Shown here: piece by piece, positions 37,388-64,000 of the stretch
Position numbering within the stretch: position 1 is the first letter of the stretch
How the letters are laid out: each line of letters opens with the position of its first letter
Virus record (IMG/VR): IMGVR_UViG_3300050343_000261
DNA from: a virus
Direction: 5' to 3' (one strand)
Length of the DNA stretch: 64,000 nt
Translations under genes and position numbers: made by a program
The notes under the pieces: generated by a model
The model's input: only the letters and a program-made list of their open reading frames with translations
Databases searched by the model: none
What the model was told of the DNA's origin: nothing

Positions 37388-37395
37388 TATTTATG
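37388..37395 (-). promoter_or_regulatory. Late promoter CATAAATA for gp8
   Basis: Overlaps the stop of the 955-aa gene. Confidence 0.6.
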
Positions 37396-48509: not shown

Positions 48510-50606
48510 TTAGTATCCGCTAGATGTTGGTGACGAAGATGAAGAGGAAGAAGTCCCACTAACAAGAGTAGTAGTGACTATTGGTGAAGAAGTAATCAAC
48601 CTACTTCCAGGCACATGTGAAGAACCAGTCATCTTGGTTCCGTCAGGCATGATGTGATAATCGCCATAATATTTTTCGCCGTTTACATAACCGATTAGAG
48701 TAGAACCGGCAGTAGTAGTTATAATGGTTCCACGAACCTTCTTATCTGTAGAGTAACTAGACTGAGCAAGGAACCTTGAACCAGAACTATTGTTACCAGT
48801 TGCAACACTATCTACACGCATGTAGACGTTGCTTTTTGCAACATCAAACGATAGGTACATCTCATTTCTGGCAAGAACATCATTAGATAAAGGAACTGCC
48901 TCAATCTCAATGATATTGTTTTCTGCCAGAGTTGATGTAATGTTTACTGTCTCAAGAATAATCTCACCTTTCTCATAATCAATTCGTCCAAACTTGGAGT
49001 TGACAACCTGAACCCGATCATCTTCTAAGATTTGGAAGAGGAACAGATCGCCAGTCTTATCGTTGAGTTTATTGTCTGAGAAGTAGCAAGTTCCCACTAC
49101 ACCTGATACATTGAACCCAGTGGAGTGAATATTGTAAGAACTACCAGAACAATAGAAAGGATTTAGGAAACAGATTTCATACTGTGCAAACTGGTCGATT
49201 TTGGCAACCAGGTCACGACGCATTCTCACCAACGTGATGTTAGAGGTGATGGAATTATCCACACCATCAATAGTTGCTTGAATACCGCTATATTTGAATC
49301 GACCACCAAATTGATTGATTTCACGACCCCCACCATAAAGTGTGAGAGAATTCAATACATTGGTTTTGAGATTGTCAACGTCACCAATAAAATTGGTGTT
49401 GTAGTACACATAGGTATCTACCTCAACATACAAGAAACTCAGGTCTACAAAAGATGGTAGGATACCTGCAATCGTATAATTACGAAGAGATGTGAGAAGT
49501 TGCTTCTTAGTCAGATCTGACAAGAAGAAACCATTTTTAGGTTTGGCAGCAATGAATACCCGACCATACTGTGGAGGAGTAAGTTCTTCGCCACCATAGG
49601 CACTCACAGACTCGATGTTGGGGTAAAGAGAAGGTAAGATTGCCTCGTAGTCATTTGCCGTCACAGCACGGTTCTGAGCGGCATATAGACGGGGTGCATA
49701 ATACTTGACACTCTCTAAAGACTCAATAGAATCTCCATTTTCAGAAGGAGTGCTTGTAAACAGGTTTGCGGCGAATCCACTTTCAGTGGCACCGTCCTGA
49801 TCTTTCAATGTTCCAACAAAGTTGAAGAAACGTACACCGTTTCCTGCCTTACCATTGGTCTTGATATAACCAATAGTAATTACGTTGCCAGACTCTAGTT
49901 TCTTACCAAAGACTCCATCACCGAAAAGAACTTCGTACTTCTCGTCGGTCGTTTCTTGAATAAGGTAAATGTTAGATGCTGAAGTAACACCAACAATAGA
50001 ATTTGCTAACTTATACTCAGTAACAGTGTTATCAGAAGCACTGTTCTTTACTTTTACTGTAAGAGTTGATGTATCCACTCCATTGTTAGGAATGATATAT
50101 CTTTGGTTAGGAAGAGAATTATTGACAGTAAAAGTGTTCTCTAGATATTGTCCTTGATAGATTTCAATAGAAGCACCTGCTGCAGTATCTTTCGCAGGGA
50201 AAGTAATCTTCTCAGAAATAGAAAAAATATAATTTACATCAGATATGCTACCGTTAGCAATGACACCAGGTTGAATTGATACAGTCTCTGTGGTGGTTGG
50301 GAGGGAAGTGATATCAATATCTACTACTGCTCGTGAGGCACGGACAGAACGAGGTACGTAACCAATATTACGTGCTAGAGATACAACGTTCTCTCTGAGA
50401 GTTGCTGAGTCGATAAACGTCTCATTCACCGCCATGTTGGTGTTGTAGGCGGTGCTATACGAATTATATGCAAGAATATTGATAAGCATTGAGAGGTTAG
50501 ACCCCTCAAAGTCCATATCTGTGAAGTTACTGTTCTCTCTCAGATATCCTTTGATTGAGGTCTTTATGTCCTCAAAATTCAGATTTGTAAATTGTGTTAG
50601 TGCCAT
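48510..50606 (-). CDS. gp6: Baseplate wedge subunit
   Basis: FTNLNFEDIKTSIK, LDSATLRENVV-type IDSATLRENVVSLARNIGY, QNRAVTANDYE, FGGRFKYS. Confidence 0.96.
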   Translation of the reverse strand: MALTQFTNLNFEDIKTSIKGYLRENSNFTDMDFEGSNLSMLINILAYNSYSTAYNTNMAVNETFIDSATLRENVVSLARNIGYVPRSVRASRAVVDIDITSLPTTTETVSIQPGVIANGSISDVNYIFSISEKITFPAKDTAAGASIEIYQGQYLENTFTVNNSLPNQRYIIPNNGVDTSTLTVKVKNSASDNTVTEYKLANSIVGVTSASNIYLIQETTDEKYEVLFGDGVFGKKLESGNVITIGYIKTNGKAGNGVRFFNFVGTLKDQDGATESGFAANLFTSTPSENGDSIESLESVKYYAPRLYAAQNRAVTANDYEAILPSLYPNIESVSAYGGEELTPPQYGRVFIAAKPKNGFFLSDLTKKQLLTSLRNYTIAGILPSFVDLSFLYVEVDTYVYYNTNFIGDVDNLKTNVLNSLTLYGGGREINQFGGRFKYSGIQATIDGVDNSITSNITLVRMRRDLVAKIDQFAQYEICFLNPFYCSGSSYNIHSTGFNVSGVVGTCYFSDNKLNDKTGDLFLFQILEDDRVQVVNSKFGRIDYEKGEIILETVNITSTLAENNIIEIEAVPLSNDVLARNEMYLSFDVAKSNVYMRVDSVATGNNSSGSRFLAQSSYSTDKKVRGTIITTTAGSTLIGYVNGEKYYGDYHIMPDGTKMTGSSHVPGSRLITSSPIVTTTLVSGTSSSSSSSPTSSGY

Positions 50607-51010
50607 TATAGCCTAGTAGGTTCAAGAACGAATTGTACCCTTTGTGATGGACTATTCTGTCCAACAATGTCGTAGTAGATTGCTATATCAAGGCAATTTC
50701 TATCTGGGTAACTTTCTACCCTTACGTCAGTAAGTCGGACTCTAGGTTCAAAATTAGTGATAGTAGTTTCAATCTCATTCTTGATGGGATCGACATACTC
50801 CCCATTAGCAAGTTCAAATAAAGCACCAGTAATCCTAGTTCCCAATAGGTTATTGAAGAATACTTCGCCTAATTGAATACGTACTAGGTTTTGAACAGCT
50901 CGCTTGATAGCGTCCTCATTTTTTAGAGGAATAATATCATTAGTGACCGGATGCCTTTTGAAAGACAATGAGATGTCTTTGAAAGGTAGCGATGTTCTCT
51001 GAAGAGGCAC
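50606..51010 (-). CDS. gp25: Baseplate wedge subunit / sheath initiator
   Basis: FKDISLSFKRHPVTND, NEDAIKRAVQNLV, FEPRVRL. Confidence 0.95.
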   Translation of the reverse strand: MPLQRTSLPFKDISLSFKRHPVTNDIIPLKNEDAIKRAVQNLVRIQLGEVFFNNLLGTRITGALFELANGEYVDPIKNEIETTITNFEPRVRLTDVRVESYPDRNCLDIAIYYDIVGQNSPSQRVQFVLEPTRL

Positions 51011-51034: not shown

Positions 51035-51045
51035 TATTTATTTAG
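51035..51045 (-). promoter_or_regulatory. Overlapping late promoters CTAAATAAATA for the baseplate operon
   Basis: Lies between a terminator and the gp25 start. Confidence 0.75.
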
Positions 51046-51050
51046 AGTAC

Positions 51051-51077
51051 AAAAAAAAGGGGTCGTGAGACCCCTTT
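51051..51077 (-). terminator. Rho-independent terminator
   Basis: GGGGTC-tcac-GACCCC followed by T8 on the minus strand. Confidence 0.88.
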
Positions 51078-51278: not shown

Positions 51279-52043
51279 TCAAATAATTCTAGTTTTCTCA
51301 TGACCAACACGACACTTAGGATCACACCAAATTTCAAACCCTGCTTTCTTAGCATCGAGGCAGAAAGATACGTCTTCACCACACATGTCTTGGACTTCTC
51401 CAGATTCAAAAACTTGCATCTGAGGAGCAAACCAAGGGTATGTCATCATCTTGTGTTCAAACACACCCTTCTTGATTAGCAACCAACCGAAACCGGTGTA
51501 GTCAACAGTAAAAGGTTTGCGACGCTTCTGAATGCCGTCAAGCATCTCGTGGTTCATTACACCACCGTTATTCTTGAAGTCATCCTCTTCCAACCAGTGT
51601 GCAACAGAAGTGGTGTTACCATCTTCAGTCACATACCAACCAGCAGCAAGGTCTTTGTCCATCCAAAGGATGCGATAAAATTGTTCAAGACCAAAAACGA
51701 TGTCACTATCGATCCACAGTTGATAATCATACTGGAGTTTGCCATCCCAAGGTTCTTGATCAGGACCACGGAGGACATTTGCTCCTAGACACTTACAACG
51801 GGCAAAGTTGACCATTGAAGAGTAGTCTTGGGAGATTTGAATAGCACCCCCCTGCTGTACAATCTCAAAACAGAGTTGTACAAAGTTTTTCAGGAAAATA
51901 TATGATACGCCGCGACCAGGGAGACAGAAGACAAAGGTTTTACCCTTTACCATCTCTCTTGCGGCTTCAACACTGAACTCGTCCGACTTTGTAGTTTGTT
52001 CGCCTTCTGGCGGAGTCGTTACCACCTTGAAACCTTTAGCCAT
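51279..52043 (-). CDS. GT-A (GT2-like) glycosyltransferase-like protein
   Basis: VFCLPG, VNFARC, YDYQLWIDSD (DxD), GFGWLLIKKGVFE, GEDVSFC. Confidence 0.75.
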   Translation of the reverse strand: MAKGFKVVTTPPEGEQTTKSDEFSVEAAREMVKGKTFVFCLPGRGVSYIFLKNFVQLCFEIVQQGGAIQISQDYSSMVNFARCKCLGANVLRGPDQEPWDGKLQYDYQLWIDSDIVFGLEQFYRILWMDKDLAAGWYVTEDGNTTSVAHWLEEDDFKNNGGVMNHEMLDGIQKRRKPFTVDYTGFGWLLIKKGVFEHKMMTYPWFAPQMQVFESGEVQDMCGEDVSFCLDAKKAGFEIWCDPKCRVGHEKTRII

Positions 52044-52096
52044 ACATGTAGGTCAATTTTTGATAAGGCATCACGCCTAAGTGCATGATACCATAT

Positions 52097-52103
52097 TATT
52101 TAG
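52097..52103 (-). promoter_or_regulatory. Late promoter CTAAATA for the glycosyltransferase-like gene
   Basis: Overlaps the radical SAM stop. Confidence 0.65.
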
Positions 52104-53353
52104 TACCCCGCAAGTTCGGGAAAAGTCAGTCTCCAATTGGTTCCTCGGGTCTTATCAAGATCATCAAAATACTCTTTTGCAATCTCCCAAGACCCAGGTT
52201 CGCATGGTCTCATCATATCTAAAGCAACTGACTCACTAACACCTTTTACCTCATCTAATATCTGCTCCTTGAGTGGTTCTGGCAGATTATTGACTCTTAG
52301 AAAACGTGGGTTCTCTAATCGGTTATAGATTTCAAATGGACGCTTTTTTAGTTCGTGCTCTTCAAAAAACTCAAATACTTCTTTGATTTTGTACACACTT
52401 AGAAGAGAAGGTGTATATGTTGTCGTCAAAGAACCTTTTCCTGATTCTTTGCAATATTTTCGCAGTGCTTGAACATTTGCCCATGTTTTATCCCAATCTG
52501 TTGGATATCTCAAATAATGGTTTCTTTCGCGCAATCCATCACAACTCCATTGAACATGGATGTATCTAAACTCTTTCAGGTATTTTTCCATTACTTTCAT
52601 GTCCCACATAGTCATATTTGAGACATAGTTCAATTTCATGTGTGATGCTTTTCCTGCAAGAATCAAAGCATCTAGAACTTGAAAATGTGCCTTCATCGCC
52701 ATTGGTTCTCCACCACAGAATCCCATGGCACCAATGCGGTCAGCATTATCAATAATGTCTTCTACAAGTTTACGAAATTGATCTGGGTCAACTTTTCTGA
52801 GATCTGTAGGTAACCAGTAGGCATCATCAACATTTTTGGCAAACCAGTCGTCTCTTCCCTCAGAAACTCGTAGGTCTGAGATTTTTTCTAATCTAGCAGT
52901 TCTAGTTGTTGAATCTGCAGGATGACACCCATAACATTCCAGATTACAATAACTACCATAAAAATTCAGTTCTAGATTTAGAAATTCACGAATATCTGGA
53001 TCGTGATCATGATTATACGTTCCATCATCATTATAAAGAGCAAGAATCTCTTCATCAATTTTCGCCATCAAACGAGCAGACGTACCACTCGTTTTTTCTC
53101 GCTCATGACACAAATGACAAATTCCTTTACACTGATTGGTTATTTCGCCATTCAACATTCCACGGCGTAACTCAACTGCCTCTGGACCATCAAAATATTC
53201 AAAAACAGTTTCAGTAGCAGGACCAACTAGTTGTTGGCGGTGTGCCCAGCAACATGGAGCATATCCATGTGATTGTCCATTTCTAACAGAGATAAATGGA
53301 TATGCACAAAGACCATTGTTTTTTTGATTAGCAATTAGCTCTGTTCTATTCAT
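52100..53353 (-). CDS. Radical SAM protein with an N-terminal SPASM/twitch-like Cys cluster
   Basis: CNLECYGC (CxxxCxxC), FCGGEP, YVSNMT, WSCDG; N-terminal CAYPF..APCC..CHLC. Confidence 0.92.
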   Translation of the reverse strand: MNRTELIANQKNNGLCAYPFISVRNGQSHGYAPCCWAHRQQLVGPATETVFEYFDGPEAVELRRGMLNGEITNQCKGICHLCHEREKTSGTSARLMAKIDEEILALYNDDGTYNHDHDPDIREFLNLELNFYGSYCNLECYGCHPADSTTRTARLEKISDLRVSEGRDDWFAKNVDDAYWLPTDLRKVDPDQFRKLVEDIIDNADRIGAMGFCGGEPMAMKAHFQVLDALILAGKASHMKLNYVSNMTMWDMKVMEKYLKEFRYIHVQWSCDGLRERNHYLRYPTDWDKTWANVQALRKYCKESGKGSLTTTYTPSLLSVYKIKEVFEFFEEHELKKRPFEIYNRLENPRFLRVNNLPEPLKEQILDEVKGVSESVALDMMRPCEPGSWEIAKEYFDDLDKTRGTNWRLTFPELAGY

Positions 53354-54192
53354 ATACCAGGAAACAGATGATGGAGTTTTTCATTATCAGTCATTTCCTG
53401 GATAATCCACTTTGCAATCGCAATATGCCCGTTTTTACCCGGATGCCATCCACCCAACCAGCGGTGAGTGTCTTCCTCATTACCAGCGGCAAATTCTGTC
53501 TTTTCATCTCTCTGATCAAGAGTTCTATACTCCCTCATCAGTTCTTCATCATTCATCCACCATGTAGGACAAATAGCATCTGTTTCTCCGACAAAATACT
53601 CTCTATTGCAAAATTCTTCTTGTGATGGTGTCACACCCTTGACACGCTTGGTGTCTACCAACTCTTTCCACTTAGTATCGCAACTTTCAAGTTCTTTCTT
53701 AGTCCATTCCTCTAATTGAAGAAAAACATAAGGAATACGTTTTGCTTTGAAGTATTGTTCAAGTAAAAATACGTTTTTGTAAAAATTGTCAATATATTGG
53801 GTTCTAGACTTGACATTAGCGTCCCACCACTCACAAATCTCAATTACTTTGTGTTCTGGGTGGCAACCATAAAAATGTTCATACTGATCCATGCTGAACC
53901 AGCGTTCATTTACTTCGCTGTAGTATGCCCACCTCTGAGGGTGCGAAAACTGAACTACAGCAACATCTATTTCGTTGTTCTCACAATACTCAACTGTATC
54001 CCGAGTAATCTCATCATTGGAGTAACCAGAATACCCAATATTGTCAAATGTTACTGAAATGCCAAAAAGTTCATCCAAATATTCCTTTACGACATTTGAA
54101 TATCTTAGTTTGTCCCTTTGTTCCATACTATGTTCCAGACCATCCAATTCAGTCCCTTCACAAAAGGAATCGCCAGAAAATAGTATTTTCAT
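53350..54192 (-). CDS. SGNH-hydrolase-like protein (copy 1)
   Basis: FSGDSFCEG, GYSNDEI, GWHPGKNGH. Confidence 0.75.
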   Translation of the reverse strand: MKILFSGDSFCEGTELDGLEHSMEQRDKLRYSNVVKEYLDELFGISVTFDNIGYSGYSNDEITRDTVEYCENNEIDVAVVQFSHPQRWAYYSEVNERWFSMDQYEHFYGCHPEHKVIEICEWWDANVKSRTQYIDNFYKNVFLLEQYFKAKRIPYVFLQLEEWTKKELESCDTKWKELVDTKRVKGVTPSQEEFCNREYFVGETDAICPTWWMNDEELMREYRTLDQRDEKTEFAAGNEEDTHRWLGGWHPGKNGHIAIAKWIIQEMTDNEKLHHLFPGI

Positions 54193-55568
54193 AATACAGT
54201 AACGTTGTACTTGTTTGAGAAATCAATTGCATCAGACCATTCGTTGACCATTGGCATGCCACGAATGTTCAATGATGTATTTAGAAGTACAGGGCAACCT
54301 GTACGCTCATACCATGCCTCTAGAATCGCCCTGAAGACGCTTGAACTGGTCTCGGGCACCGTTTGTACTCTTGCACTGTTATCGACGTGCACGCAGGCAG
54401 GAATCTCGTCTGGACGCTTACATTGATAGACATAAGACATGTATCGAGAGTGCTCTGGCATATCAAAGTAATCTTGACAATGCTCCTCCAGAATTGCGGG
54501 TGCAAATGGTCTAAACTTCTGTCTTTTCTTGATTTCGTTGACTCGATCCTTATTTGCAAATGATCGGGGGTCCGCAATCAAAGAACGGTTACCTAAAGCA
54601 CGAGGACCGTACTCTGCCTTACCATTTGCTATACCACAGATGCCATCCTTCAAAAGAACATCCACAACTGCTTCAGGATCAACTTTACGGTCGATCTTAT
54701 ACCCAGTGTAAGGAGTGAACTCAACTTTCTTACCTGATGCCAATAGAGCAGCACCAAGTGCCCCACCAGCGTCTCCTGGGTTGGGCATGATCCACAAGTT
54801 GCATTTTTTGCGGAGTTTGGTGTTAGCAACACAGTTCAAGGCAACACCACCACCATAGCAAACGTTATCGCTGTATCGGAGTGCAATATCAAAGATCTTA
54901 TTCAACTCTTCTTCTAGAACGACCTGTGCACTAGCAGCAACGTCCTCTTTGTTCTCAATATCCAGACGACAACCTCGATGGTTGTTTTGAGACAAAAGTT
55001 TCCTTACCTCATCTACATGTTTGGGTTCACCAAACGCTGCCATACCCATAAAGATATATTCCTCGTCTAAAGGACGAAGACCTGCCCATCCAGTCAAAGC
55101 AGAGTACCAAAGACCTATAGATTTTGGATATCTACGAGACCAACGTTTTTTATAGACAGCACTACCACCAACCATCTCTGCAGTCCATACAGAACTACAA
55201 TCCCACTCACCAATACTATCTACAACAACACATGCTGCTTCATCAAAGCATGAAGTTTGAAATGCCGCTGCAGCATGCGACATATGATGGGGGAAACCGA
55301 TATTTGGTCGTAACGCTAGATGTCTCCGTTTACGCCAATGGTTTTGTCCAGCAAAAAATTGCCTGACACGTTTTGGGATCTGCTGCTCATAAAAAGAAAC
55401 TACGTCATCACTTGTGTTGAGTGATTCGCCATAAAAAGCAAGTTCCTCACATAATTTTTTATCGTGTTTTTTCTTAGAGTATCTTTCGCTGTGTGCAGCA
55501 AAGATAATCTTGTTATTACGCACAACCGCCAGTCCGGCGTCGTGAAACCCCTCAGAGAATCCAATCAT
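54189..55568 (-). CDS. NodU/CmcH-family carbamoyltransferase
   Basis: GFHDAG, HHMSHAAAAF, DSIGE, GGGVALNC, EYGPRALGNRSL, FRPFAP, LLNTSLN. Confidence 0.93.
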   Translation of the reverse strand: MIGFSEGFHDAGLAVVRNNKIIFAAHSERYSKKKHDKKLCEELAFYGESLNTSDDVVSFYEQQIPKRVRQFFAGQNHWRKRRHLALRPNIGFPHHMSHAAAAFQTSCFDEAACVVVDSIGEWDCSSVWTAEMVGGSAVYKKRWSRRYPKSIGLWYSALTGWAGLRPLDEEYIFMGMAAFGEPKHVDEVRKLLSQNNHRGCRLDIENKEDVAASAQVVLEEELNKIFDIALRYSDNVCYGGGVALNCVANTKLRKKCNLWIMPNPGDAGGALGAALLASGKKVEFTPYTGYKIDRKVDPEAVVDVLLKDGICGIANGKAEYGPRALGNRSLIADPRSFANKDRVNEIKKRQKFRPFAPAILEEHCQDYFDMPEHSRYMSYVYQCKRPDEIPACVHVDNSARVQTVPETSSSVFRAILEAWYERTGCPVLLNTSLNIRGMPMVNEWSDAIDFSNKYNVTVL

Positions 55569-55702
55569 CCTTCATCGTCCCCCTCATCAGCAAAAGGATC
55601 ATCCATCTCATCCATCTGATCTGCTTCATAAATGAACGGATCCATTTTACGGATTTTCCGAAGATTCCATTCACCTACAATCCAATACCAGAGTCGGCGC
55701 AT
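55565..55702 (-). CDS. 45-aa protein missing from the ORF track
   Basis: Manual translation MRRLWYWIVGEWNLRKIRKMDPFIYEADQMDEMDDPFADEGDDEG; GAGG RBS; ATGA overlap with the carbamoyltransferase. Confidence 0.7.
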   Translation of the reverse strand: MRRLWYWIVGEWNLRKIRKMDPFIYEADQMDEMDDPFADEGDDEG

Positions 55703-55732
55703 AATTACCTCAAATGCTTCCTATCTATAATA

Positions 55733-56623
55733 TCACTTTCCCCAAGATTCGGGCAATTTGCCAAAATACTTCTTCCAATTAGAGTAGCAAGGTTCCATCA
55801 TAATCTTTGCTTTATCTTTGACATGATCTGGCATATGCATTACGTCAGATTCCCACTGATCGTTCAAATATTGGATATGTGGAGCACAGGGACCGAGATC
55901 TGGGACATATGCATTGACATGAGTTTCCTTGATATCCATACCAATAAAACCTGACAGTAGAGAAGTCTCTCCTGCCCAAAAATCTTCCATAATCGTTATA
56001 TGGGTGTTATCATTGCCAAATGCATCTGCCCATTTGTTGTAAAAGTCGATATAGTCAAAATCCATACCAGACTTTAGAAAATGCTCGACAGGTTTGTCTC
56101 TTTTCTGAGCTTGACGACAAGACCACAATCTCCGAATGGGATCTCGGAAAATCATGTGAATTTTTACATCAAAATAACTCTGTAAATGATATGCAAGATA
56201 TTTTATGTACTCTGCATCACAATATCCATTAGGGTTGCTAAAATCAGCAACTGCTTTATAATCATCTTTGATATTATCCCAATGTTTCAAGTAATATTGA
56301 ACATACTTCGCCAAATCAAATGGAGGACCCCAAAAATACTCAATTTCTTCCTCAGTCCATTTTCCAGCAACGTACTTAGATTCATGAGTGAAGATTTTGG
56401 GTTTCCGAGTCGTAGTTGACTGCCTGGATGGTCCAAAAAACTTTTTGTAAAACTTTATTCTCTCAAACGTGTTATTATCTCTCTGTAATTGGAGCAACCA
56501 CAGATATCCTTTCTCTTTACGGTGTCCAGCATGACAATAGTTGTTATACCAACCCAAAGTGTAGTATAATGGAGTGGTCCCTGACCATCCAGTTCCTACA
56601 TTCAAAAATAATGTAGGTTTCAT
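55733..56623 (-). CDS. Sulfotransferase-like protein (copy 4)
   Basis: VGTGWSGTTPL, RKEKGYL, IFRDPIRRLWS, NAYVPDLG...DQW. Confidence 0.75.
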   Translation of the reverse strand: MKPTLFLNVGTGWSGTTPLYYTLGWYNNYCHAGHRKEKGYLWLLQLQRDNNTFERIKFYKKFFGPSRQSTTTRKPKIFTHESKYVAGKWTEEEIEYFWGPPFDLAKYVQYYLKHWDNIKDDYKAVADFSNPNGYCDAEYIKYLAYHLQSYFDVKIHMIFRDPIRRLWSCRQAQKRDKPVEHFLKSGMDFDYIDFYNKWADAFGNDNTHITIMEDFWAGETSLLSGFIGMDIKETHVNAYVPDLGPCAPHIQYLNDQWESDVMHMPDHVKDKAKIMMEPCYSNWKKYFGKLPESWGK

Positions 56624-56778
56624 CCTCTACAAGGTTCAATTCGGATATCTTCAGGTTTATAAGTAGTGTTGATTCCTGCCATAATCATATTTTGCATGGT
56701 AGTGCGAATCTCTTCTGCTTTTTCTTTTGATAGAGATTCAAAGATGATTTTCTTGTCTAGATAGACATCATACGGCAT
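56620..56778 (-). CDS. 52-aa protein missing from the ORF track
   Basis: Manual translation MPYDVYLDKKIIFESLSKEKAEEIRTTMQNMIMAGINTTYKPEDIRIEPCRG; AGGAGG RBS; ATGA overlap downstream. Confidence 0.75.
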   Translation of the reverse strand: MPYDVYLDKKIIFESLSKEKAEEIRTTMQNMIMAGINTTYKPEDIRIEPCRG

Positions 56779-56810
56779 ACGACCCACCTCCTGAATTTAT
56801 ATAGTTTACC

Positions 56811-57782
56811 ATGAAACCAACACTTCTTCTAAATCCCGGCGTTGGTTGGGCAGCAACCAGTCCGATGCACTACACAGTGACGATGGACAACCAATATGTT
56901 CACATGGGGCATAAGAAAGAGAATTGGTACCTCAAAGCACTTTGTATGCAGGATGAGGAGCATGAACGTGCTTTTGATCTAATGTGGAACGGTGCTAGTT
57001 ATCAAAAAAGACCAAACGATCATCCGTATGGCGAATATTTGTCGAAAAGTAACCGATTTATCAAAAATACATCTTTAGATGGGCTTATGGTGAACCCAAA
57101 GTCACTCGATGCGTACATTGAATACTTTTTAGGGCATTGGGAAAACATCAAAGACGAATATCAGGGAGTTTGCGACTTCTCCAACGCAAATTTTAGTCTT
57201 CCTAGAGAATTTTTGTTTGAAATTGCTCCAAAATTGCAGGAACACTTCAAAGTCAAGATCTTGATGGAGTTTCGTGACCCTGTTAGGCGCTATTTTTCGG
57301 AAGTTGGTAGTTTATTGACCCGAAAAGTCGATGTTGTAGATTCTTGGTGCGGAGATTTTACCGCAGCAGCCTTTGCAAAGAGACAAAATCACCGAAAATT
57401 GTTTTTTCACAACCTAAAACAGAATAGAGTGCCAGATCATTGCGATTATATCGCTGGTTACCTAAAATATTGCGATGCTTTTGGTAAAGATAACGTTTAT
57501 CCAGTGGTGATGGAGGATTTTTGGGATCCTGAACAAGAAAGAGAGCAACTTGGCGCTATTTCTGAGTTTTTTGAGTACCCAATTACAGAACTTCATCAAA
57601 ATGTTTATGTCCCAGACATGGGAAGTAAGGCACCACACCACGATTACCTAAAAGATCAGTGGATAAGCGACGTTGAAGACCTTACTGAAGAAGATATCCG
57701 AGTGGCAGGCATGTATATGGGTAAGTTTTATAAAGATTGGAAGCACGTTTTCAAAACTCTACCTAAAGCATGGGGAAAATAG
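56811..57782 (+). CDS. Sulfotransferase-like protein (copy 5)
   Basis: PGVGWAATSPM, KKENWYL, EFRDPVRRYFS, NVYVPDMG...DQW. Confidence 0.75.
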   Translation: MKPTLLLNPGVGWAATSPMHYTVTMDNQYVHMGHKKENWYLKALCMQDEEHERAFDLMWNGASYQKRPNDHPYGEYLSKSNRFIKNTSLDGLMVNPKSLDAYIEYFLGHWENIKDEYQGVCDFSNANFSLPREFLFEIAPKLQEHFKVKILMEFRDPVRRYFSEVGSLLTRKVDVVDSWCGDFTAAAFAKRQNHRKLFFHNLKQNRVPDHCDYIAGYLKYCDAFGKDNVYPVVMEDFWDPEQEREQLGAISEFFEYPITELHQNVYVPDMGSKAPHHDYLKDQWISDVEDLTEEDIRVAGMYMGKFYKDWKHVFKTLPKAWGK

Positions 57783-57835
57783 AGTGCTATCAAGTCACCA
57801 TCATGACTTTGAGTATGATGGCCAAACTATGTTAC

Positions 57836-57843
57836 GATAAATA
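57836..57843 (+). promoter_or_regulatory. Late promoter GATAAATA for the SGNH gene run
   Basis: One mismatch from consensus, about 40 nt upstream of 57886. Confidence 0.6.
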
Positions 57844-57885
57844 CGGCAGAATCCCCGCATTACTGCCTAGGAAATTTGATCTATT

Positions 57886-58671
57886 ATGAATCTTGTTACT
57901 TTTGGATGCTCTTGGATGTTCGGAGTGGGCACTAACTACACTCCAGGGATGAGTAAGATTGAATATAAACAAGGTAAAGACAATCATGACGCAAAGTTCG
58001 GAGACAAATATGCCTTTCGTAAGCATCTAGCAGATAAGTGGGAGTGCACGAACGAAAATTTCGCTCAAATGGGGTCTTCCAATGAGCGTCAGTTTCGGTT
58101 TGCTGAGAGATACTTTGGTAAATTAGATCCAAGTGAGTACAAAAACACAGTTGTCCTCTGGGCATTGACTGTTACAACCCGCACTGAGGTGTTTTCTAAG
58201 GAAAAGGGGAAGTATATCAACGTTCTTTTTGGTAATGGATGGGGTGCTGACACCCAAATGGAGCGTGCTAAGTTTGATAGCAAGGCACATTTAGCACATC
58301 ACTATGATCACAAGGAGAAAGTAGAACTACTTGGACACAAATGCCGCTTCTGGAACCGCTTTTTTGAAGCAGCAGGTATTGAAAATTATTGGTTTGATAC
58401 TTTCAATCATCATGAATACCCCAAACCAATCGATAGGATGCTCTTTGACGATCAACCTAGGCGGGATCTGATGTCTTTGAAGTGTGCAGACTTACAATTC
58501 TCCCCAAAAGCAGATGGATATCACGTCTCGCAGTTCTCTTCTTCAGATTCTACTCGCATTCAATATCTAGAAGAACAGAAACAAGTCAATCCTTTCTCTC
58601 AACATCCCACTAGAGAGTATCATGAGTGGATAGCAGATAAGATTGATGCTGAGGTTGCTCGATTTAGATGA
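57886..58671 (+). CDS. SGNH-hydrolase-like protein (copy 2)
   Basis: VTFGCSWMFG, GSSNERQFR, SQHPTREYH. Confidence 0.75.
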   Translation: MNLVTFGCSWMFGVGTNYTPGMSKIEYKQGKDNHDAKFGDKYAFRKHLADKWECTNENFAQMGSSNERQFRFAERYFGKLDPSEYKNTVVLWALTVTTRTEVFSKEKGKYINVLFGNGWGADTQMERAKFDSKAHLAHHYDHKEKVELLGHKCRFWNRFFEAAGIENYWFDTFNHHEYPKPIDRMLFDDQPRRDLMSLKCADLQFSPKADGYHVSQFSSSDSTRIQYLEEQKQVNPFSQHPTREYHEWIADKIDAEVARFR

Positions 58672-59507
58672 CTCGGTTACTGACTTTAGGATGTAGTTGG
58701 ATCGCTGGTATTGGTTCTAAGTATGATGCTGATAAACCTTGGGATAAAGAAACATATAAAAGCAACTCTCATAGCGATGACAACTATAAAAATGCATTTA
58801 GAACTATTCTATCATCCAAATATGGATTAGAAAACGTCAATATTTCTTCTGGCGGGGCATCTAATAGTAGTCAGTTCCGCAAACTTAGAAAATATTTACA
58901 TCTGAATGATCTAAATGATACCATTGTTCTATGGGGAGTAACTTCTATCTACAGGATGGAAGTATTTTTCAATCATGGAAAGTCATTTTCATGCTTTCAA
59001 CCCGGTCAAGAGAAACGTAAACATATTCATGGACCTGATTGGTGTGGACCAAAGGAGTATTTCCGCCAACACTTCAATAAACGTCTCGCCGGTCGGACGT
59101 TAGCAGACGAAGTCCATTTTTGGCAGAAGTATTTTGAGTTACTCAACGTTCCTCAAATATGGTTTGACACACTGAATGTCAATGATTATGAAGGTGGTGT
59201 ATATAAACCATTTGATGAATTGCCATATGACTGCAATCAGGACTTACTAAGTCAGTTGGCATACAAGAATGGATGGGATCCAATGGATGATAAGTACCAC
59301 TTGTCTGATTGGAAAGCAGATTGTGATCGTGTTGACTTCTTGAAGAAAAAAGGAGTTCTCAATCCATATTCATTTCACCCAACTATACAAGGACATCAAC
59401 AAATTGCAGAGATCCTTGACCCTATACTAACCAAGTGCTATACTTCATATAAGGAATCTAATAAAGATCCCAAACCTTACAAAACTTTTTGGCGTGACGT
59501 TCATTAG
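58668..59507 (+). CDS. SGNH-hydrolase-like protein (copy 3)
   Basis: LTLGCSWIAG, GASNSSQFR, SFHPTIQGH. Confidence 0.75.
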   Translation: MTRLLTLGCSWIAGIGSKYDADKPWDKETYKSNSHSDDNYKNAFRTILSSKYGLENVNISSGGASNSSQFRKLRKYLHLNDLNDTIVLWGVTSIYRMEVFFNHGKSFSCFQPGQEKRKHIHGPDWCGPKEYFRQHFNKRLAGRTLADEVHFWQKYFELLNVPQIWFDTLNVNDYEGGVYKPFDELPYDCNQDLLSQLAYKNGWDPMDDKYHLSDWKADCDRVDFLKKKGVLNPYSFHPTIQGHQQIAEILDPILTKCYTSYKESNKDPKPYKTFWRDVH

Positions 59508-59511
59508 TTCT

Positions 59512-59859
59512 ATGGCAGACGACACTATTACCTTTACTGGTACTGACTCACTAGATATTCAAATCCCTGAAGATGCTGTACAAGCAGCTCAACAAGTGCC
59601 TTTCACATTCGGAGGCATTGGGGGACCGGGACAGGATTGCATTTCGTTTTCTATCTCTAACGATGATGGTCATCCCGGTTATTACAATACTGGAAAAATT
59701 GAAGTCTGGGATTTCATTGCAGATCAAGAACTCGACTTCTTTGCTGGTAATGTTGTAAAATACGTTAGTCGTGCAGGTAGGAAATCTGGCAACTCCCGTC
59801 AAGATGACCTACAAAAAGCAAAGACCTACATACAGAAAATGATTGATCTTTCGGCATGA
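59512..59859 (+). CDS. DUF3310 / T7 gp1.7-like domain protein
   Basis: HPGYYNTGKIEVWDFI, FFAGNVVKYVSRAGRK, DDLQKAKTYI. Confidence 0.85.
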   Translation: MADDTITFTGTDSLDIQIPEDAVQAAQQVPFTFGGIGGPGQDCISFSISNDDGHPGYYNTGKIEVWDFIADQELDFFAGNVVKYVSRAGRKSGNSRQDDLQKAKTYIQKMIDLSA

Positions 59860-60485
59860 TCTTTGCGGGTTGTTCGTATACATGGGGTGATGAACTAGAC
59901 AACCGTCTAACAGAACGGTTCATTCATCATGTCCAGAAACACTACCAGTGTGAAGTTACAGATCTGTCCCAATGTGGGGGATCTAATGACTACATCGTAA
60001 ATAGGGCACTGCATGAAATCAAGACCAATGGGGTTCAACCTACGGTCTTACAACTTACAGTGCCTACCCGTATTGAGTTCTACGCAGAAGATGGTGCTCA
60101 CCTCTTCTGCCCTTTTAGGTGGAGGCAAGATAATTCTAATTTCAACTTCCGGTCAGGTAATAAGAAGAAAGTACCACATGCTCTAGCAATGTCTTCCTAC
60201 TACCGTTGGGTATGGAATAAGACACATGGGGCAGAAAATTTATACAAAAACTTGCTTCTTTTTGAACAATTTGCTAAAGTACATGAAGTTCCCTACATTG
60301 TACTATTCAATGATTGTGATCCTTTAGAAGATATGGGGTATTGGCGAAACCTAATGGATGACCCGAAAATGCACCATATTTACGAGGATATTCTGAAGAT
60401 GATCCAGACCCCTGGTCAAGGTCACCCAAATGCAGATCAACACAAAGTCATTGCTGACTACATTATAGAACATACTAACTTCTAA
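59856..60485 (+). CDS. SGNH-hydrolase-like protein (copy 4)
   Basis: FAGCSYTWG, GGSNDYI, GHPNADQH. Confidence 0.75.
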   Translation: MIFAGCSYTWGDELDNRLTERFIHHVQKHYQCEVTDLSQCGGSNDYIVNRALHEIKTNGVQPTVLQLTVPTRIEFYAEDGAHLFCPFRWRQDNSNFNFRSGNKKKVPHALAMSSYYRWVWNKTHGAENLYKNLLLFEQFAKVHEVPYIVLFNDCDPLEDMGYWRNLMDDPKMHHIYEDILKMIQTPGQGHPNADQHKVIADYIIEHTNF

Positions 60486-60488
60486 ATA
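60482..60488 (+). promoter_or_regulatory. Late promoter CTAAATA
   Basis: Overlaps the upstream stop, about 25 nt before 60514. Confidence 0.6.
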
Positions 60489-60513
60489 TTTTTTATAATC
60501 CACAGAGGTTTCC

Positions 60514-60783
60514 ATGAAAAAATGTGAAAAGTGTGGTGCTACCTGGATGGAGGGTGTCCTCTATTGGCAAGGTACCGGCAAACCTGGTAAAGATATTGAC
60601 CTTGCTGGTTTAGTATGCAATAACCTTAGAGAAGATGATCCTGATGCTGTAAAGTGCATCAATACCTCTAAAGGAAAACCCGGTGGTGATACCTGGGAAT
60701 ATCGTCGTGGTTTTATTGATGGTGCTTTCACATCCCTCAAGAACCAACGTGAAGAAATGAGGGATAACTTTGGAGACCTTTGA
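60514..60783 (+). CDS. Small Cys-containing hypothetical protein
   Basis: CEKC...LAGLVCN...CIN, a possible metal-binding motif; GAGG RBS. Confidence 0.75.
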   Translation: MKKCEKCGATWMEGVLYWQGTGKPGKDIDLAGLVCNNLREDDPDAVKCINTSKGKPGGDTWEYRRGFIDGAFTSLKNQREEMRDNFGDL

Positions 60784-61615
60784 TGGGGGTGCTGACGTAA
60801 CAGATCTTCGCCCAGTCCTAATCGTCCTTGGTGGTGCATGGACTCTTGCAGAAGATGACCCTAAAACATCATGGGCACAGATCTTAGCAGACAAATATAA
60901 TTGGCGATTGAAAAATATATCTTTCAAACGGGTATCTAACGATACTCTCCAATACCACTTGAATAAAGTAATTATTCGTAAGTTACCTGAGTATAAAAAA
61001 AGAGGCATCAAAGTCGCTGGTATTATCTTTGAAATTCAGCATATTTCAAATAAAGATGATTTTGAAGCTGCCTCAAGGGTTTTATTCCTTGGTATGACGG
61101 ATGAACAAAAGTTCAACCAACAATATTGGCACAAAATTGATGTTGATGATTACTATAAAAACCATCATAACTTCTGGGTATGTTATGACCGATTCAAATA
61201 TCAAATCGCAGTCTTTGATAAACTTCTAAAACTTGAAGGTATTCCTAACTATTGGTGGGATGGTATCGATAATCATATCCACCCTGGTGGTCGCCTCCTA
61301 CTCAATTCCATGCTAACTGAACTAACATGGAATGAATGTCACTCACCTGACTCTAATCTAGAAACTGAAGGATATGGTCTCCGTTGGATGAATGAAGAAA
61401 CCTCAGAACGTGTCAAATTTTGTGTAAAAACTAATCTACTTCATACCTTCAAAAATCAACTTCACCCTACTCCTAAAGCACATAAACGTATCGCTATGGT
61501 AATGGAATACTCAATGCATGATATCTTCAAGTCTCCATACTATTATCTCACAAAAAATAATATGAGACAGTCCATCTACGATGATGAACATCGTAAAGAA
61601 ACAGATGACAAATAA
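60770..61615 (+). CDS. Degenerate SGNH-like protein (copy 5)
   Basis: LGGAWT replaces GCSW (nucleophile Ser lost); VSNDTL and LHPTPKAH retained. Confidence 0.6.
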   Translation: METFDGGADVTDLRPVLIVLGGAWTLAEDDPKTSWAQILADKYNWRLKNISFKRVSNDTLQYHLNKVIIRKLPEYKKRGIKVAGIIFEIQHISNKDDFEAASRVLFLGMTDEQKFNQQYWHKIDVDDYYKNHHNFWVCYDRFKYQIAVFDKLLKLEGIPNYWWDGIDNHIHPGGRLLLNSMLTELTWNECHSPDSNLETEGYGLRWMNEETSERVKFCVKTNLLHTFKNQLHPTPKAHKRIAMVMEYSMHDIFKSPYYYLTKNNMRQSIYDDEHRKETDDK

Positions 61616-62591
61616 ATTTCCTTTGTTATTTGGTGTCGGCACTCCACATTCTGCCACCACACCTTTATTATACACACTATCTCATGATAACCATTATTGC
61701 CACTCTTGGAGGGCACAACAGCATGGTTACCTTACTTTCATGCAAGGTCGTAATAATCAAGAATCTGCACTAAAACGTTATCATCATAACTTAGATAATC
61801 CATCTAATGCTAAACTACCTACACTCGTTTCTAATAACCCCCTCCTAGGTACAGTTGATATTCAATCCGAAAAGGACTTTATGTCCCCACCATTTACTAT
61901 AGAAAAATACATATCCTATCATCAAAAACAATACAACAATATAAAACCACATTATCATTCTGTAGTAGATTTCAATAACTCTAACGCATCCCTTCAATTA
62001 CCTTTCTTACAACATATCAAACCATCCTTAGATCATTACTTTGATATCAAAGTCATCATGATCTTCAGAGACCCTATCAAACGCCTTTGGTCTCATATCA
62101 ATTACCTGATCAATGATCTGCAAGCATTTGAACTTTCATCTCAAAGAGAGGGTTTCAACCGTCGCGGTGCTTGGATGTCTGATCTCGACAGAACACCTAA
62201 GAAATACTTCAAAGATACTACTGATGCCCTACTAACAAAAGGCATTGATGAACATACAGCATACGCTAAACTATTCAAAACTTGGTCCACCGCTTTCCCA
62301 GAGAGGGTTCACGCTATTATCATGGAAGACCTCTGGAATCCCTCAACATCATCCTTACAAGATCTCTCAGACTTCTTAGAGTTTCCCCTACATACCCTCC
62401 ACCAAAACGCTTACTACCCTGACAAAGGTATCAATGCTCCCAAATACCCTTACCTCCAGGATCAATGGTCCTCCGATACCGATCCACTAACCTTAGATAT
62501 TATCAACAAAGCAAAGCATATCCTTGCACCTGTCTACCAAGACTGGAAAGAAACATTCGGTGACCTCCCCACATCATGGATTCATCCTTAG
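61605..62591 (+). CDS. Sulfotransferase-like protein (copy 6)
   Basis: VGTPHSATTPL, IFRDPIKRLWS, NAYYPDKG...DQW. Confidence 0.72.
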   Translation: MTNKFPLLFGVGTPHSATTPLLYTLSHDNHYCHSWRAQQHGYLTFMQGRNNQESALKRYHHNLDNPSNAKLPTLVSNNPLLGTVDIQSEKDFMSPPFTIEKYISYHQKQYNNIKPHYHSVVDFNNSNASLQLPFLQHIKPSLDHYFDIKVIMIFRDPIKRLWSHINYLINDLQAFELSSQREGFNRRGAWMSDLDRTPKKYFKDTTDALLTKGIDEHTAYAKLFKTWSTAFPERVHAIIMEDLWNPSTSSLQDLSDFLEFPLHTLHQNAYYPDKGINAPKYPYLQDQWSSDTDPLTLDIINKAKHILAPVYQDWKETFGDLPTSWIHP

Positions 62592-63346
62592 TTACCTTCG
62601 GTTGCTCCTGGATGTGGGGTCACGGTCTCTGCTACACCCCAGGACAACCTAGAGAACAATTCAACGCCCAAAGACACTCTGATGACTTCACAAAATACTC
62701 ATACCGTCACCTACTCTCAGAGAAACTCAATAAAACTAACATAAATTTCTCAATCAATGGTTCAAGTAACCAAAAGCAATTCCGCTTGGCCACTGAGTTC
62801 TTCAACACTTCTCCCCCCTCGAAAGACTCCATTGTTCTCTGGGGTATAACTTCAACCGCTCGTGATGAAATATGGTATAATAACCGTAATACCTACGTAA
62901 GTAGAGTATGGGGTCACGGTTATTCCGCAGATAACCAACTACGTAAAAATAACTTTGACTCCAAAACTCACCTCCGCTTACATTACAATCACTCCGTAGT
63001 CCTCAAAGAACTTTCCAATCAAATGCTTCATTGGAATACTTACTTTGATGCACTCGGTATTCGTAACTATTGGGTAGATCTCTTCAACCATCACATATAC
63101 CCCACTCATATCCCCCGTCTCCTATTCTCTGATCGCCCTCACAGGGACCTCTGTTCCATTCTATCTACCTATTACGGTTACACTCCTACTAACGATACTT
63201 ACCACGTCTCTCAATACCAAAAGACAGACTCACGCCGTATACGGTTCTTAGAACAACATAAACACATAAATCCCCATTCCTTCCATCCCACTCGGAAGTC
63301 TCATTCCTTCTTCGCTGATCTCCTCTACAATGAAATTCATCATTGA
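62576..63346 (+). CDS. SGNH-hydrolase-like protein (copy 6)
   Basis: VTFGCSWMWG, GSSNQKQFR, SFHPTRKSH; close paralogue of 57886. Confidence 0.75.
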   Translation: MDSSLVTFGCSWMWGHGLCYTPGQPREQFNAQRHSDDFTKYSYRHLLSEKLNKTNINFSINGSSNQKQFRLATEFFNTSPPSKDSIVLWGITSTARDEIWYNNRNTYVSRVWGHGYSADNQLRKNNFDSKTHLRLHYNHSVVLKELSNQMLHWNTYFDALGIRNYWVDLFNHHIYPTHIPRLLFSDRPHRDLCSILSTYYGYTPTNDTYHVSQYQKTDSRRIRFLEQHKHINPHSFHPTRKSHSFFADLLYNEIHH

Positions 63347-63500
63347 ATACCAGGACCAATTCTTCAAGTGGCATCGCTACGGTGAACAACATAACTTGAC
63401 ATCTGCTTGCCGTACCGCAAAGGGGCGTTCAATCCAATCTGGTAAAAAATATCGCGTCCTCTCCTCTAATGGCGTCCTACAAGAAATCTTTTACCCTTGA
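63330..63500 (+). CDS. 56-aa protein missing from the ORF track
   Basis: Manual translation MKFIIEYQDQFFKWHRYGEQHNLTSACRTAKGRSIQSGKKYRVLSSNGVLQEIFYP. Confidence 0.65.
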   Translation: MKFIIEYQDQFFKWHRYGEQHNLTSACRTAKGRSIQSGKKYRVLSSNGVLQEIFYP

Positions 63501-63704
63501 TATAACTGGATAGTTGAACACTTTGCCCCCCTCGAAACCTACAGAGGATTTTTTTTACCTCGGAATTTTTTCTATACGGCGTTCTGGGTATCTCAAAAAA
63601 TAAATGAAATCAACATCTATCGAGCGTCTGGAAACGTTTATAGCTTAGAAAGAAGGTACTTTTTTAGCAACGCCCCCCCTCGGTAACATCGAAGGACCAC
63701 AAAT

Positions 63705-63890
63705 AACTGTCCCTAAGTGTCACTAACTGTGTGCCCACTATGTGTCACTGAGACCCTCAAAGTGTGCCCACTAAGTGTTGCTAACTGTTTCGGATGCTGG
63801 TGAACTTTCCTCGGTGCAATCGTGCCCCTTATGTGTCACTTAGCGATCTTCTGCAACTGTTAGATAGGCATTCCTTATGTGTTACTTAGT
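63705..63890. repeat. Cluster of short direct repeats in a non-coding region
   Basis: GTGTGCCCACTA at 63729 and 63762; CCTTATGTGT(C/T)ACTTAG at 63827 and 63873; CTAAGTGT(CA/TG)CTAACTGT at 63713 and 63771. Confidence 0.85.
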
Positions 63891-63949
63891 GGGGTGCTAA
63901 ATGTTAGATAGTGACTGTGATTGTACTGTTACAAAGTGTCTCCGAGGGG

Positions 63950-63979
63950 TTGCAATTTGGGGGCGATCTGTGATAAACT
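63950..63979 (+). promoter_or_regulatory. Probable sigma70-type early promoter
   Basis: TTGCAA-18 nt-TAAACT with TG in the extended -10 position; target gene lies outside the window. Confidence 0.5.
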
Positions 63980-64000
63980 GTGTGATCATGTTGTGCTCGC

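Follow-up and report, generated by a model that had tools for sequence, protein, structure and literature searches.

We examined a 64,000-nucleotide (nt) stretch of viral DNA, IMG/VR record IMGVR_UViG_3300050343_000261 (hereafter the window), which belongs to a marine T4-like cyanomyovirus. Between positions 51279 and 63346, next to the baseplate operon, the window carries an island of enzyme genes: one for a protein resembling GT-A glycosyltransferases (GT-like), and others for a radical SAM enzyme, an O-carbamoyltransferase, three sulfotransferase-like (ST) proteins and six SGNH-fold proteins. We give an even chance to the reading that it is a hypervariable island, specific to a clade of marine T4-like cyanophages, whose products tailor hydroxyl groups in the cytoplasm, with a sugar or glycoconjugate formed inside the infected cell as the likeliest substrate. 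The gene families and folds, the conserved catalytic residues, the cytoplasmic location as judged by sequence, the purifying selection, the recurrent synteny and the copy-number variation are established. A first-pass annotation had named these same gene classes, every one of which was recovered in place, and its description of a coherent set of group-transfer and esterase-type enzymes adjoining a GT-like gene and the baseplate operon was borne out.

The closest matches of the conserved island genes were to Synechococcus and Prochlorococcus myoviruses. A megablast search of the island against 50,697 phage records returned no match, and thus no cultured phage similar at the DNA level. A 192-kb IMG/VR record (CheckV 100%, complete) is collinear with the island at 94-96% identity, and we used this 94%-identical relative as a proxy for the window's phage in questions that concern the whole genome. 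We also gathered 74 viral loci through the ST family; because this sample is similarity-selected and redundant, counts from it are to be read as ranges and not as frequencies. Gene order in these loci was as in the window, with gp6-gp25-GT-[radical SAM]-[SGNH]-carbamoyltransferase-sulfotransferase as the recurring arrangement; the carbamoyltransferase was present in 58 loci, and the GT-like gene together with gp25 in 56.

Paralogue families were defined by all-against-all BLAST, and the six SGNH-fold genes fall into two families, B and C. Thirty-five loci covered 9 kb or more of the island side; in these, gene numbers ranged from 0 to 8 for ST, 0 to 4 for SGNH-B, 0 to 6 for SGNH-C (0 to 10 for SGNH genes overall) and 0 to 2 for radical SAM, a strong variation across many related phages that upholds the paralogue expansion proposed from the window alone. 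SGNH-B genes were found only in loci with three or fewer ST genes. Two island types could be told apart: a B-rich type with a DUF3310 gene and an 89-amino-acid (aa) gene, to which the window belongs, and an ST-rich type without B genes. The complete 94%-identical genome lacks exactly positions 61626-62593 (ST3), a clean one-gene indel with the neighbouring frames re-joined at both junctions. Gain, loss and duplication of ST and SGNH genes would alter the decoration between close phages.

All island genes are under purifying selection, with ratios of nonsynonymous to synonymous substitution (dN/dS) of 0.02-0.55 against the 94% relative and 0.04-0.26 against a 77% relative. We dropped a reading of the island as stuffer DNA or decaying genes because of these values and of the conserved catalytic residues described below. 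No signal peptide or membrane segment was found in any island product (maximum 19-residue hydropathy at most 1.16; the N-termini open directly with strand 1), and the enzymes are therefore predicted to work in the cytoplasm, where as soluble proteins they would act on hydroxyl (or amino) groups.

Layout of the island and its expression signals

The genes at 48510-51010 encode the baseplate wedge proteins gp6 and gp25. The island would have been inserted between this operon, together with the near-core GT-A-like gene beside it, and the neighbouring early-type region. Its span is filled by 14 open reading frames (ORFs) of at least 89 aa, in a minus-strand and a plus-strand run that diverge from a 23-nt gap (56788-56810). 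Divergent starts 23 nt apart (56787-56811) leave either promoters inside the opposing coding sequences or transcription from farther off. In order of transcription, the minus run consists of a 54-aa ORF, ST1, a 45-aa micro-ORF, the carbamoyltransferase, SGNH C1, the radical SAM gene and, past a 56-nt gap with a CTAAATA motif, the GT-like gene. From the micro-ORF through the carbamoyltransferase and C1 to the radical SAM gene, stops overlap the next starts, an arrangement of tight coupling. The plus run consists of ST2, SGNH B1, B2, the DUF3310 gene, SGNH C2, the gene for an 89-aa CxxC protein, SGNH B3, ST3 and SGNH B4. The micro-ORF, the DUF3310 gene and the 89-aa ORF are island members that the first-pass annotation did not include. 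The features of the island and its border are as follows.

51039-51045, minus strand: CTAAATA late-type motif of gp25
51056-51077, both strands: bidirectional terminator-like hairpin that closes the minus run and separates the island from the gp25 baseplate operon
51279-52043, minus strand: GT-A-like protein, 254 aa; phrog_1574 (= T4-GC 102), with invariant DSD and GEDV
52097-52103, minus strand: CTAAATA late-type motif, 54 nt upstream of the GT start
52100-53353, minus strand: radical SAM enzyme, 417 aa; NF033640 N_Twi_rSAM
53350-54192, minus strand: SGNH-fold protein C1, DUF6071-like, 280 aa; GDS, GxSND and HPxxxGH; 4-nt overlaps with the carbamoyltransferase stop and the radical SAM start
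54189-55568, minus strand: O-carbamoyltransferase of the NodU/CmcH/TobZ family, 459 aa; Kae1-like N domain with HHxxH, YrdC-like C domain
55565-55702, minus strand: 45-aa micro-ORF; amphipathic N-terminus, invariant D-P-(F/Y)-I-Y-E, acidic tail
55733-56623, minus strand: sulfotransferase-like ST1, 296 aa; loop GTGWSGTT (W at the PSB lysine position, see below), RDPxxRxxS retained
56623-56787, minus strand: 54-aa ORF heading the minus run; start 23 nt from the divergent ST2 start
56811-57782, plus strand: sulfotransferase-like ST2, 323 aa; paralogue, divergent from ST1
57836-57843, plus strand: GATAAATA, a variant of the T4 late consensus, 43 nt upstream of SGNH B1
57886-58671, plus strand: SGNH-fold protein B1, 261 aa; GCSW, GSSN and HPTxxxH; modelled, pLDDT (predicted local distance difference test) 90.8
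58668-59507, plus strand: SGNH-fold protein B2, 279 aa; family B paralogue
59494-59859, plus strand: DUF3310 protein, 121 aa; the matching PHROG families are labelled 'nucleotide kinase'
59856-60485, plus strand: SGNH-fold protein C2, 209 aa; GCS, GGSND and HPxxxxH
60482-60488, plus strand: CTAAATA late-type motif, 26 nt upstream of the 89-aa ORF
60514-60783, plus strand: 89-aa protein with an N-terminal CxxC; no family match; 78-92% conserved in relatives with the B-type arm
60770-61615, plus strand: SGNH-fold protein B3, 281 aa, TTG start; block I GGAW, nucleophile Ser missing, Asn and His kept; dN/dS 0.44
61581-62591, plus strand: sulfotransferase-like ST3; likely true start at Met ~61605; loop GTPHSATT
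62576-63346, plus strand: SGNH-fold protein B4, 256 aa; family B paralogue and final island gene

The DUF3310 gene, which lies amid the SGNH array, accompanies the B-type arm in 14 of the 74 loci. Past the island, in the non-coding DNA at 63500-64000, a 17-nt unit (core TGTGTCACT) occurs in four or more direct copies, with inverted copies besides; the stretch resembles iterons or operator arrays and aligns at 83% with the close relative. Rfam found no RNA family in 50.5-64 kb.

Motifs at 52097 (minus strand), 57836 (plus strand) and 60482 (plus strand) had been read as late promoters. The strings are present, and CTAAATA has been described for Aeh1, a T4-like Aeromonas phage, as the core of its late promoters (PMC1524935). 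The window contains 14 copies of CTAAATA against 8.6 expected, a number that 4 of 100 shuffles reached, and ten of the copies stand 18-65 nt upstream of a same-strand ORF start, including those of gp25, the GT-like gene and the 89-aa ORF. The island contains no exact copy of the T4 late consensus, TATAAATA. Of about 17 island ORFs, only 3 have a late-type motif in front, and few relatives conserve these motifs: CTAAATA upstream of the GT-like gene is kept in 26 of 111 distinct relatives, and the motif is rare before ST and SGNH genes. With motifs so few and so poorly conserved, late expression of the island as a whole does not follow; on these signals, late expression of parts of it is possible.

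The sulfotransferase-like and SGNH-fold paralogues

The three island ST genes are mutual paralogues (1e-47 to 1e-58), and three further paralogues lie at 16.8-21.2 kb of the window. Most of the ST proteins gave nothing significant against Pfam or NCBIfam; one paralogue matched Sulfotransfer_3 at 1.1e-5 (26.3 bits, cut-off 27). A profile built from six members matched the bacterial sulfotransferase 3rnl in the PDB at 3e-4 and, weakly, heparan-sulfate 3-O-sulfotransferases, and the neighbours in a language-model atlas were sulfotransferase clusters (0.96). An alignment of 182 distinct viral members shows an almost unchanging 3'-phosphate motif, RDPxxRxxS (R in 179 sequences, P in 180, the second R in 179 and S in 176), and the 5'-phosphosulfate loop itself is retained as G..xS[AG]T[TS]. 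Where loops of the PKxGTT type have Lys or Arg, this 5'-phosphosulfate-binding (PSB) loop has W in 126 of the sequences, F in 34, H in 12, Y in 7 and K in 1. As read from the alignment, the exchange of lysine for an aromatic residue is a selected, family-wide change and not decay. No adenosine 5'-phosphosulfate (APS) kinase was found in the complete 94%-identical relative. While the three genes are where they had been reported, sulfation as their function is only putative, since the lysine of the loop that binds 3'-phosphoadenosine-5'-phosphosulfate (PAPS) is lacking family-wide. These atypical sulfotransferase-fold paralogues may add sulfate or may employ another 3'-phospho-nucleotide donor.

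The SGNH-like proteins of the window gave nothing at gathering score against Pfam (GDSL, DUF6071; E only ~0.1) and nothing significant against NCBIfam, and the family B and C profiles had no match among PDB sequences. Structure models placed both families. The AlphaFold2 model of family B, built with 40 homologues (pLDDT 90.8), matched SGNH enzymes only: Foldseek found TesA at 6e-4, and VIA-align gave Z 13.9 for the carbohydrate esterase CE2 2waa and Z 12-13 for TesA (158-182 residues aligned, ~3 Å), with 167 chains at Z of at least 8. The AlphaFold2 model of family C (pLDDT 86.2) reached Z 15.3 to TesA and related esterases (4jgg, 9otv), and further down its list of matches stand SGNH domains from tail proteins of Shigella phages. 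Carbohydrate esterases of CE2/CE3 are included among the top SGNH structural matches. An exhaustive profile search with family C found 989 relatives; 24 of 54 that were aligned matched Pfam DUF6071 (PF19547, up to 2.8e-15), and a few matched GDSL models. The family C profile also detected the family B genes at 1e-18, so all six SGNH genes belong to one superfamily.

In the viral homologues of the two families (66 and 98 distinct sequences), the block I Ser is kept in 55/57 and 95/96, the block III Asn in 66/66 and 96/98, and the His-Pro of block V is conserved. The triad Asp of DxxH is missing, the residue three before the His being Y, H or F in family B and variable in family C. A second conserved His stands five or six residues past the first (HPxxxGH or HPTxxxH), and in block I a Cys often takes the place of the Asp of GDS. 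B3 has GGAW instead of GCSW and so lacks the Ser; it is the fastest-evolving paralogue and, from its sequence, may be non-catalytic. The island proteins thus resemble SGNH carbohydrate esterases and thioesterases (CE2 2waa, TesA 1ivn/4jgg) in fold (Z 12-15) and in the retained Ser, Asn and His-Pro, but differ from them in the missing Asp, the extra His and, for B3, the missing Ser. These DUF6071-type paralogues, with Ser and His but no Asp, would remove or transfer acyl or carbamoyl esters.

The O-acetyltransferases AlgX and PatB, with which the SGNH-like proteins had been compared, are exported and are fed by a membrane MBOAT partner. The SGNH fold is common to both groups, but the analogy fails: the island proteins have neither signal peptide nor membrane segment, and the complete 94%-identical genome contains no MBOAT or AT3 gene. 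Because the island enzymes are cytoplasmic, the AlgX/PatB mode is excluded.

The carbamoyltransferase and the radical SAM enzyme

We assigned proteins to the carbamoyltransferase family when PF02543 and PF16861 both scored above cut-off. The island protein reached 178 bits for Carbam_trans_C (cut-off 27; 1.6e-52) and 127 bits for Carbam_trans_N (cut-off 24; 1.1e-36), the metal motif HHxxH (H94, H95, H98) is invariant in 10 homologues, and the PDB matches were NovN, GdmN and TobZ (1e-36 to 3e-47). Against the NodU equivalog model NF041651 it scored 145.9 bits, far below the cut-off of 1000, and on this evidence it is therefore a member of the family rather than a NodU orthologue; 'NodU-type', as the gene had been described, is apt at the level of the family and not for NodU proper.

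The stop of the micro-ORF overlaps the carbamoyltransferase ATG (ATGA), and 39 of 54 distinct relatives have its conserved core, W..L..DP(F/Y)IYE, ahead of their carbamoyltransferase gene. The micro-ORF had no match in Pfam, and a complex prediction for the carbamoyltransferase with the 45-aa micro-protein scored 0.02, which speaks neither way. Co-translated with this DPFIY micro-protein, the carbamoyltransferase would convert carbamoyl phosphate and ATP to carbamoyl-AMP and then carbamoylate the acceptor. A second carbamoyltransferase locus, with a C-domain-only ORF of 200 aa, occurs at 138-146 kb of the IMG/VR relative G001, flanked by three other radical SAM genes and thyX, so the pairing of carbamoyltransferase and radical SAM is found twice in such phages.

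The carbamoyltransferase bears on two alternatives to a glycan acceptor. According to the first, a soluble metabolite (an amino-sugar, guanidino compound or polyamine-like molecule) is modified as at the tailoring end of a natural-product cluster, for example sxtI-sxtJ-sxtK-sxtL-sxtN; we hold this to be unlikely. NovN, GdmN and TobZ are all natural-product enzymes, and membrane or export parts are absent from the island. The saxitoxin (sxt) cluster combines a carbamoyltransferase, two small ORFs (SxtJ/K), a GDSL hydrolase proposed to decarbamoylate and the sulfotransferase SxtN, an arrangement and a set of proposed roles that the order of micro-ORF, carbamoyltransferase, SGNH and nearby ST genes parallels (PMC2679770). 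As in sxtI/J/K/L/N/O, the clustered enzymes would all act around one carbamate or hydroxyl. Unlike the saxitoxin cluster, the island has no scaffold-forming enzyme among its genes, although no search aimed at scaffold genes was made; its genes are multi-copy and virus-specific, and the close relative yielded no APS kinase. The micro-ORF, a putative counterpart of SxtJ/K, had no Pfam match, and up to eight ST-like paralogues are hard to explain for one molecule. We take the likeness as a 'works like' lead to small-molecule or carbamate-centred chemistry, not as membership.

The second alternative, which the first-pass annotation had listed among its possible targets, is hypermodification of DNA or nucleotides: a 5-hydroxymethyl-pyrimidine would be carbamoylated, with the kinase-like DUF3310 protein and the radical SAM enzyme assisting. 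One precedent is known, a phage enzyme of the NodU/TobZ family that uses carbamoyl phosphate and ATP to make 5-carbamoyloxymethylcytosine from 5-hydroxymethylcytosine (PMC8670742). The DUF3310 'nucleotide kinase' domain lies within the island, and the second carbamoyltransferase cluster of the close relative, with its radical SAM genes, adjoins thyX. In the published system, the genes linked to the carbamoyltransferase are those for a dCMP hydroxymethylase of the ThyA type and a dCMP deaminase, along with a MazG-like gene, whereas the island neighbours differ, and such carbamoyltransferases in contigs without DNA modification had unrelated genes such as GTs at their sides (PMC8670742). ThyA (PF00303) had no match in the complete 192-kb relative, where only ThyX is present; this removes the hydroxymethylase, the defining neighbour in the published system, which the DNA role of the family needs. 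To our knowledge ST-like and SGNH expansions have no precedent in DNA modification, which also counts against it. We regard DNA as a highly improbable acceptor.

The radical SAM enzyme matched Pfam at 1.4e-9 and NCBIfam NF033640 N_Twi_rSAM with 239 bits (cut-off 170). Its invariant cysteines comprise the CxxxCxxC motif (C136/C140/C143) and the N-terminal auxiliary C16, C34, C35, C79 and C82. PADLOC called no defence family and returned only a sub-threshold viperin-like radical SAM match. This N-twitch enzyme would edit the carbon skeleton of the acceptor. A 602-aa uncultured-phage protein, BFVD A0A6J5LTW5, is named as radical SAM-containing and matches the SGNH-B model (E 1e-3); it may be a natural fusion that functionally joins both enzyme types.

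Genome contigs scanned with the radical SAM alignment yielded only three loci, one of them probably viral, and the bacterial context comes from two remote relatives. The first, from Bacteroidota (24% identity), has as neighbours a Wzt ABC transporter ATPase, three GT2 genes, a PglD-like acetyltransferase and a B12-radical SAM gene, surroundings that constitute a polysaccharide cluster of the O-antigen type. The second sits in a multi-radical-SAM cluster of a Bdellovibrionia metagenome-assembled genome (L093, 2075-12463), which comprises five chromosomal radical SAM genes, some with N-terminal SPASM/twitch, and a QueC-like gene.

The O-antigen-type cluster would fit a remodelling of the host envelope for superinfection exclusion, in which cytoplasmic precursors of lipopolysaccharide (LPS) or exopolysaccharide are altered and the surface of the infected cell changed. 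GT and 'LPS' gene clusters of large cyanomyoviruses and pelagimyophages have been read in this way (PMC3037559, PMC7029224). A lytic phage with a short latent period would gain little from it, however; flippase, transporter and membrane acyltransferase partner are absent, and tailoring would be confined to lipid-linked or nucleotide-sugar intermediates. We consider envelope remodelling very unlikely.

The glycosyltransferase-like gene and the acceptor

The GT-like protein matched phrog_1574 at 3e-112 and the 'glycosyltransferase' phrog_34859 at 1.4e-6. Its D112-S113-D114, a DxD after a hydrophobic strand, is invariant in 10 homologues down to 28% identity, as is GEDV. The sole lead in the PDB was 2c0n, the viral GT-A protein A197 of Sulfolobus turreted icosahedral virus (STIV), at E 0.088 with DSD and GEDV aligned; there was no Pfam match, and phmmer against the PDB and hhalign against three bacterial GT2 proteins gave nothing. 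These sequence matches lend moderate support to a GT-A identity for 51279-52043.

A large homologue search with the GT-like protein gathered more than 2500 relatives, close ones only. The gene occurs in 104 cultured cyanophage records, where it is mostly annotated as hypothetical. In S-SSM7, the nearest cultured phage by this gene, it lies beside gp25, with small early-type ORFs upstream instead of the island, and among 80 viral loci retrieved with the GT-like protein, island genes were present only where it was at least 80% identical to that of the window. It is also the most constrained gene of the island (dN/dS 0.02-0.04). We conclude that the GT-like gene is near-core in cyanomyoviruses and that the island is inserted at its upstream side; a functional link is possible. 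Its proposed place in the toolkit was upheld as far as presence goes, but not as a pathway partner, for a near-core gene that is also found in island-free cyanomyoviruses is an anchor point.

This neighbourhood raises the question of virion decoration, a special case of the favoured reading in which baseplate or tail-fibre proteins would be modified before assembly, on Ser/Thr/Tyr or on GT-attached sugars, to tune adsorption or mask the particle; from the sequence we think it unlikely. Both paralogue islands of the window lie inside the tail and baseplate gene region, and the island is anchored to gp25/gp6 in the 56 loci noted above. The nearest solved sequence match of the GT-like protein, though weak, is STIV A197, which probably glycosylates virion protein. 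In the two large baseplate proteins, at 37391-40258 and 40258-48504, the four-residue word G-[IV]-[GST]-[ST] turns up 7-13 times more often than in shuffles (9 and 14 copies against 0.7 and 1.9 expected), and it is at background frequency in the enzymes. It may mark a modification site or be the signature of a repeat domain; an origin in repeated structural domains would weigh against decoration. Further, sulfotransferases co-encoded with tail-collar or collagen-like proteins have been proposed to modify those proteins (PMC2938197). Against decoration, the GT-like gene travels without the island in most phages. We also know of no precedent for carbamoylated or sulfated phage virion proteins.

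For the favoured reading, that the island tailors a sugar or glycoconjugate, we infer a single shared acceptor, its glycan nature and each of the individual reactions. A glycan, the substrate class proposed at the outset, stands as the best single guess because of the GT-A-like neighbour, the CE2/CE3 structural matches, the weak heparan-sulfate 3-O-sulfotransferase match and the radical SAM relative in a polysaccharide cluster. Several points weigh on the other side. The island has no genes for NDP-sugar synthesis, flippase or polymerase. The GT-like gene is present in more than 100 cultured cyanophages without the island, so that its linkage may be positional only. The solved carbamoyltransferase relatives all act on small natural products, not polymers, and the polysaccharide context of the radical SAM enzyme comes from a single bacterial relative at 24% identity. 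To these are added the altered PSB loop, the missing APS kinase and the selected make-up of the 74 loci. Virion proteins, host envelope precursors and a small metabolite are the candidate acceptors, with DNA ranked least likely.

In rhizobial Nod-factor tailoring, NodU, NodH, NodS and NodL act with NodC. The first-pass annotation had likened the island to this system, and the likeness holds for reaction types: carbamoyl-, sulfo- and acyl-handling enzymes stand beside a GT-A-type enzyme, and the carbamoyltransferase belongs to NodU's Pfam families. It does not extend to the genes themselves. The island has no NodA/B/C homologues and no NodU orthologue, its ST-like proteins lack the PAPS-loop lysine, and its acyl enzymes have the SGNH fold, not that of the NodL hexapeptide or NodB CE4 enzymes.

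Closer to the phage itself, cyanomyovirus hyperplastic regions, 'LPS gene' clusters and pelagimyophage host recognition clusters are variable, non-syntenic and located in or beside the tail-baseplate module (PMC3037559; PMC7029224). Like the island, these blocks carry glycosyltransferases and sugar-related genes, and a carbamoyltransferase is listed there as a sporadic cyanophage gene; the two reports mention, however, no sulfotransferase-like or SGNH/DUF6071 genes, no micro-ORF and no fixed gp25-GT-carbamoyltransferase-sulfotransferase order. The literature that could be searched covers variable regions and 'LPS genes' of these phages but does not describe the present enzyme set.

A more specific proposal, which we judge quite unlikely, is that the island would write a variable code of O-carbamoyl, N-/O-sulfo and acyl groups, carried by glycans that baseplate and tail-fibre proteins receive from the near-core GT-A-like enzyme. 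As ST and SGNH paralogues are gained or lost, host range or the evasion of host surface defences would be re-tuned between cyanophages that are otherwise nearly identical, and the aromatic-for-lysine ST family would employ an undescribed donor or mechanism.

T4-like cyanophages are among the most abundant marine viruses, yet what their variable regions do has long been a gap in knowledge. Conserved order and purifying selection, yet with gene number shifting between near-identical phages, are what is expected of genes for host-phage conflict or host-range tuning. The island brings together two large, virus-dominated enzyme families without a characterised member, the DUF6071-type SGNH proteins and the sulfotransferase-fold proteins with an aromatic residue in the catalytic loop, and adds to them a conserved micro-protein coupled to the carbamoyltransferase. 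Naming the acceptor would tell whether marine phages use such enzymes to decorate their particles, host surfaces or a metabolite.

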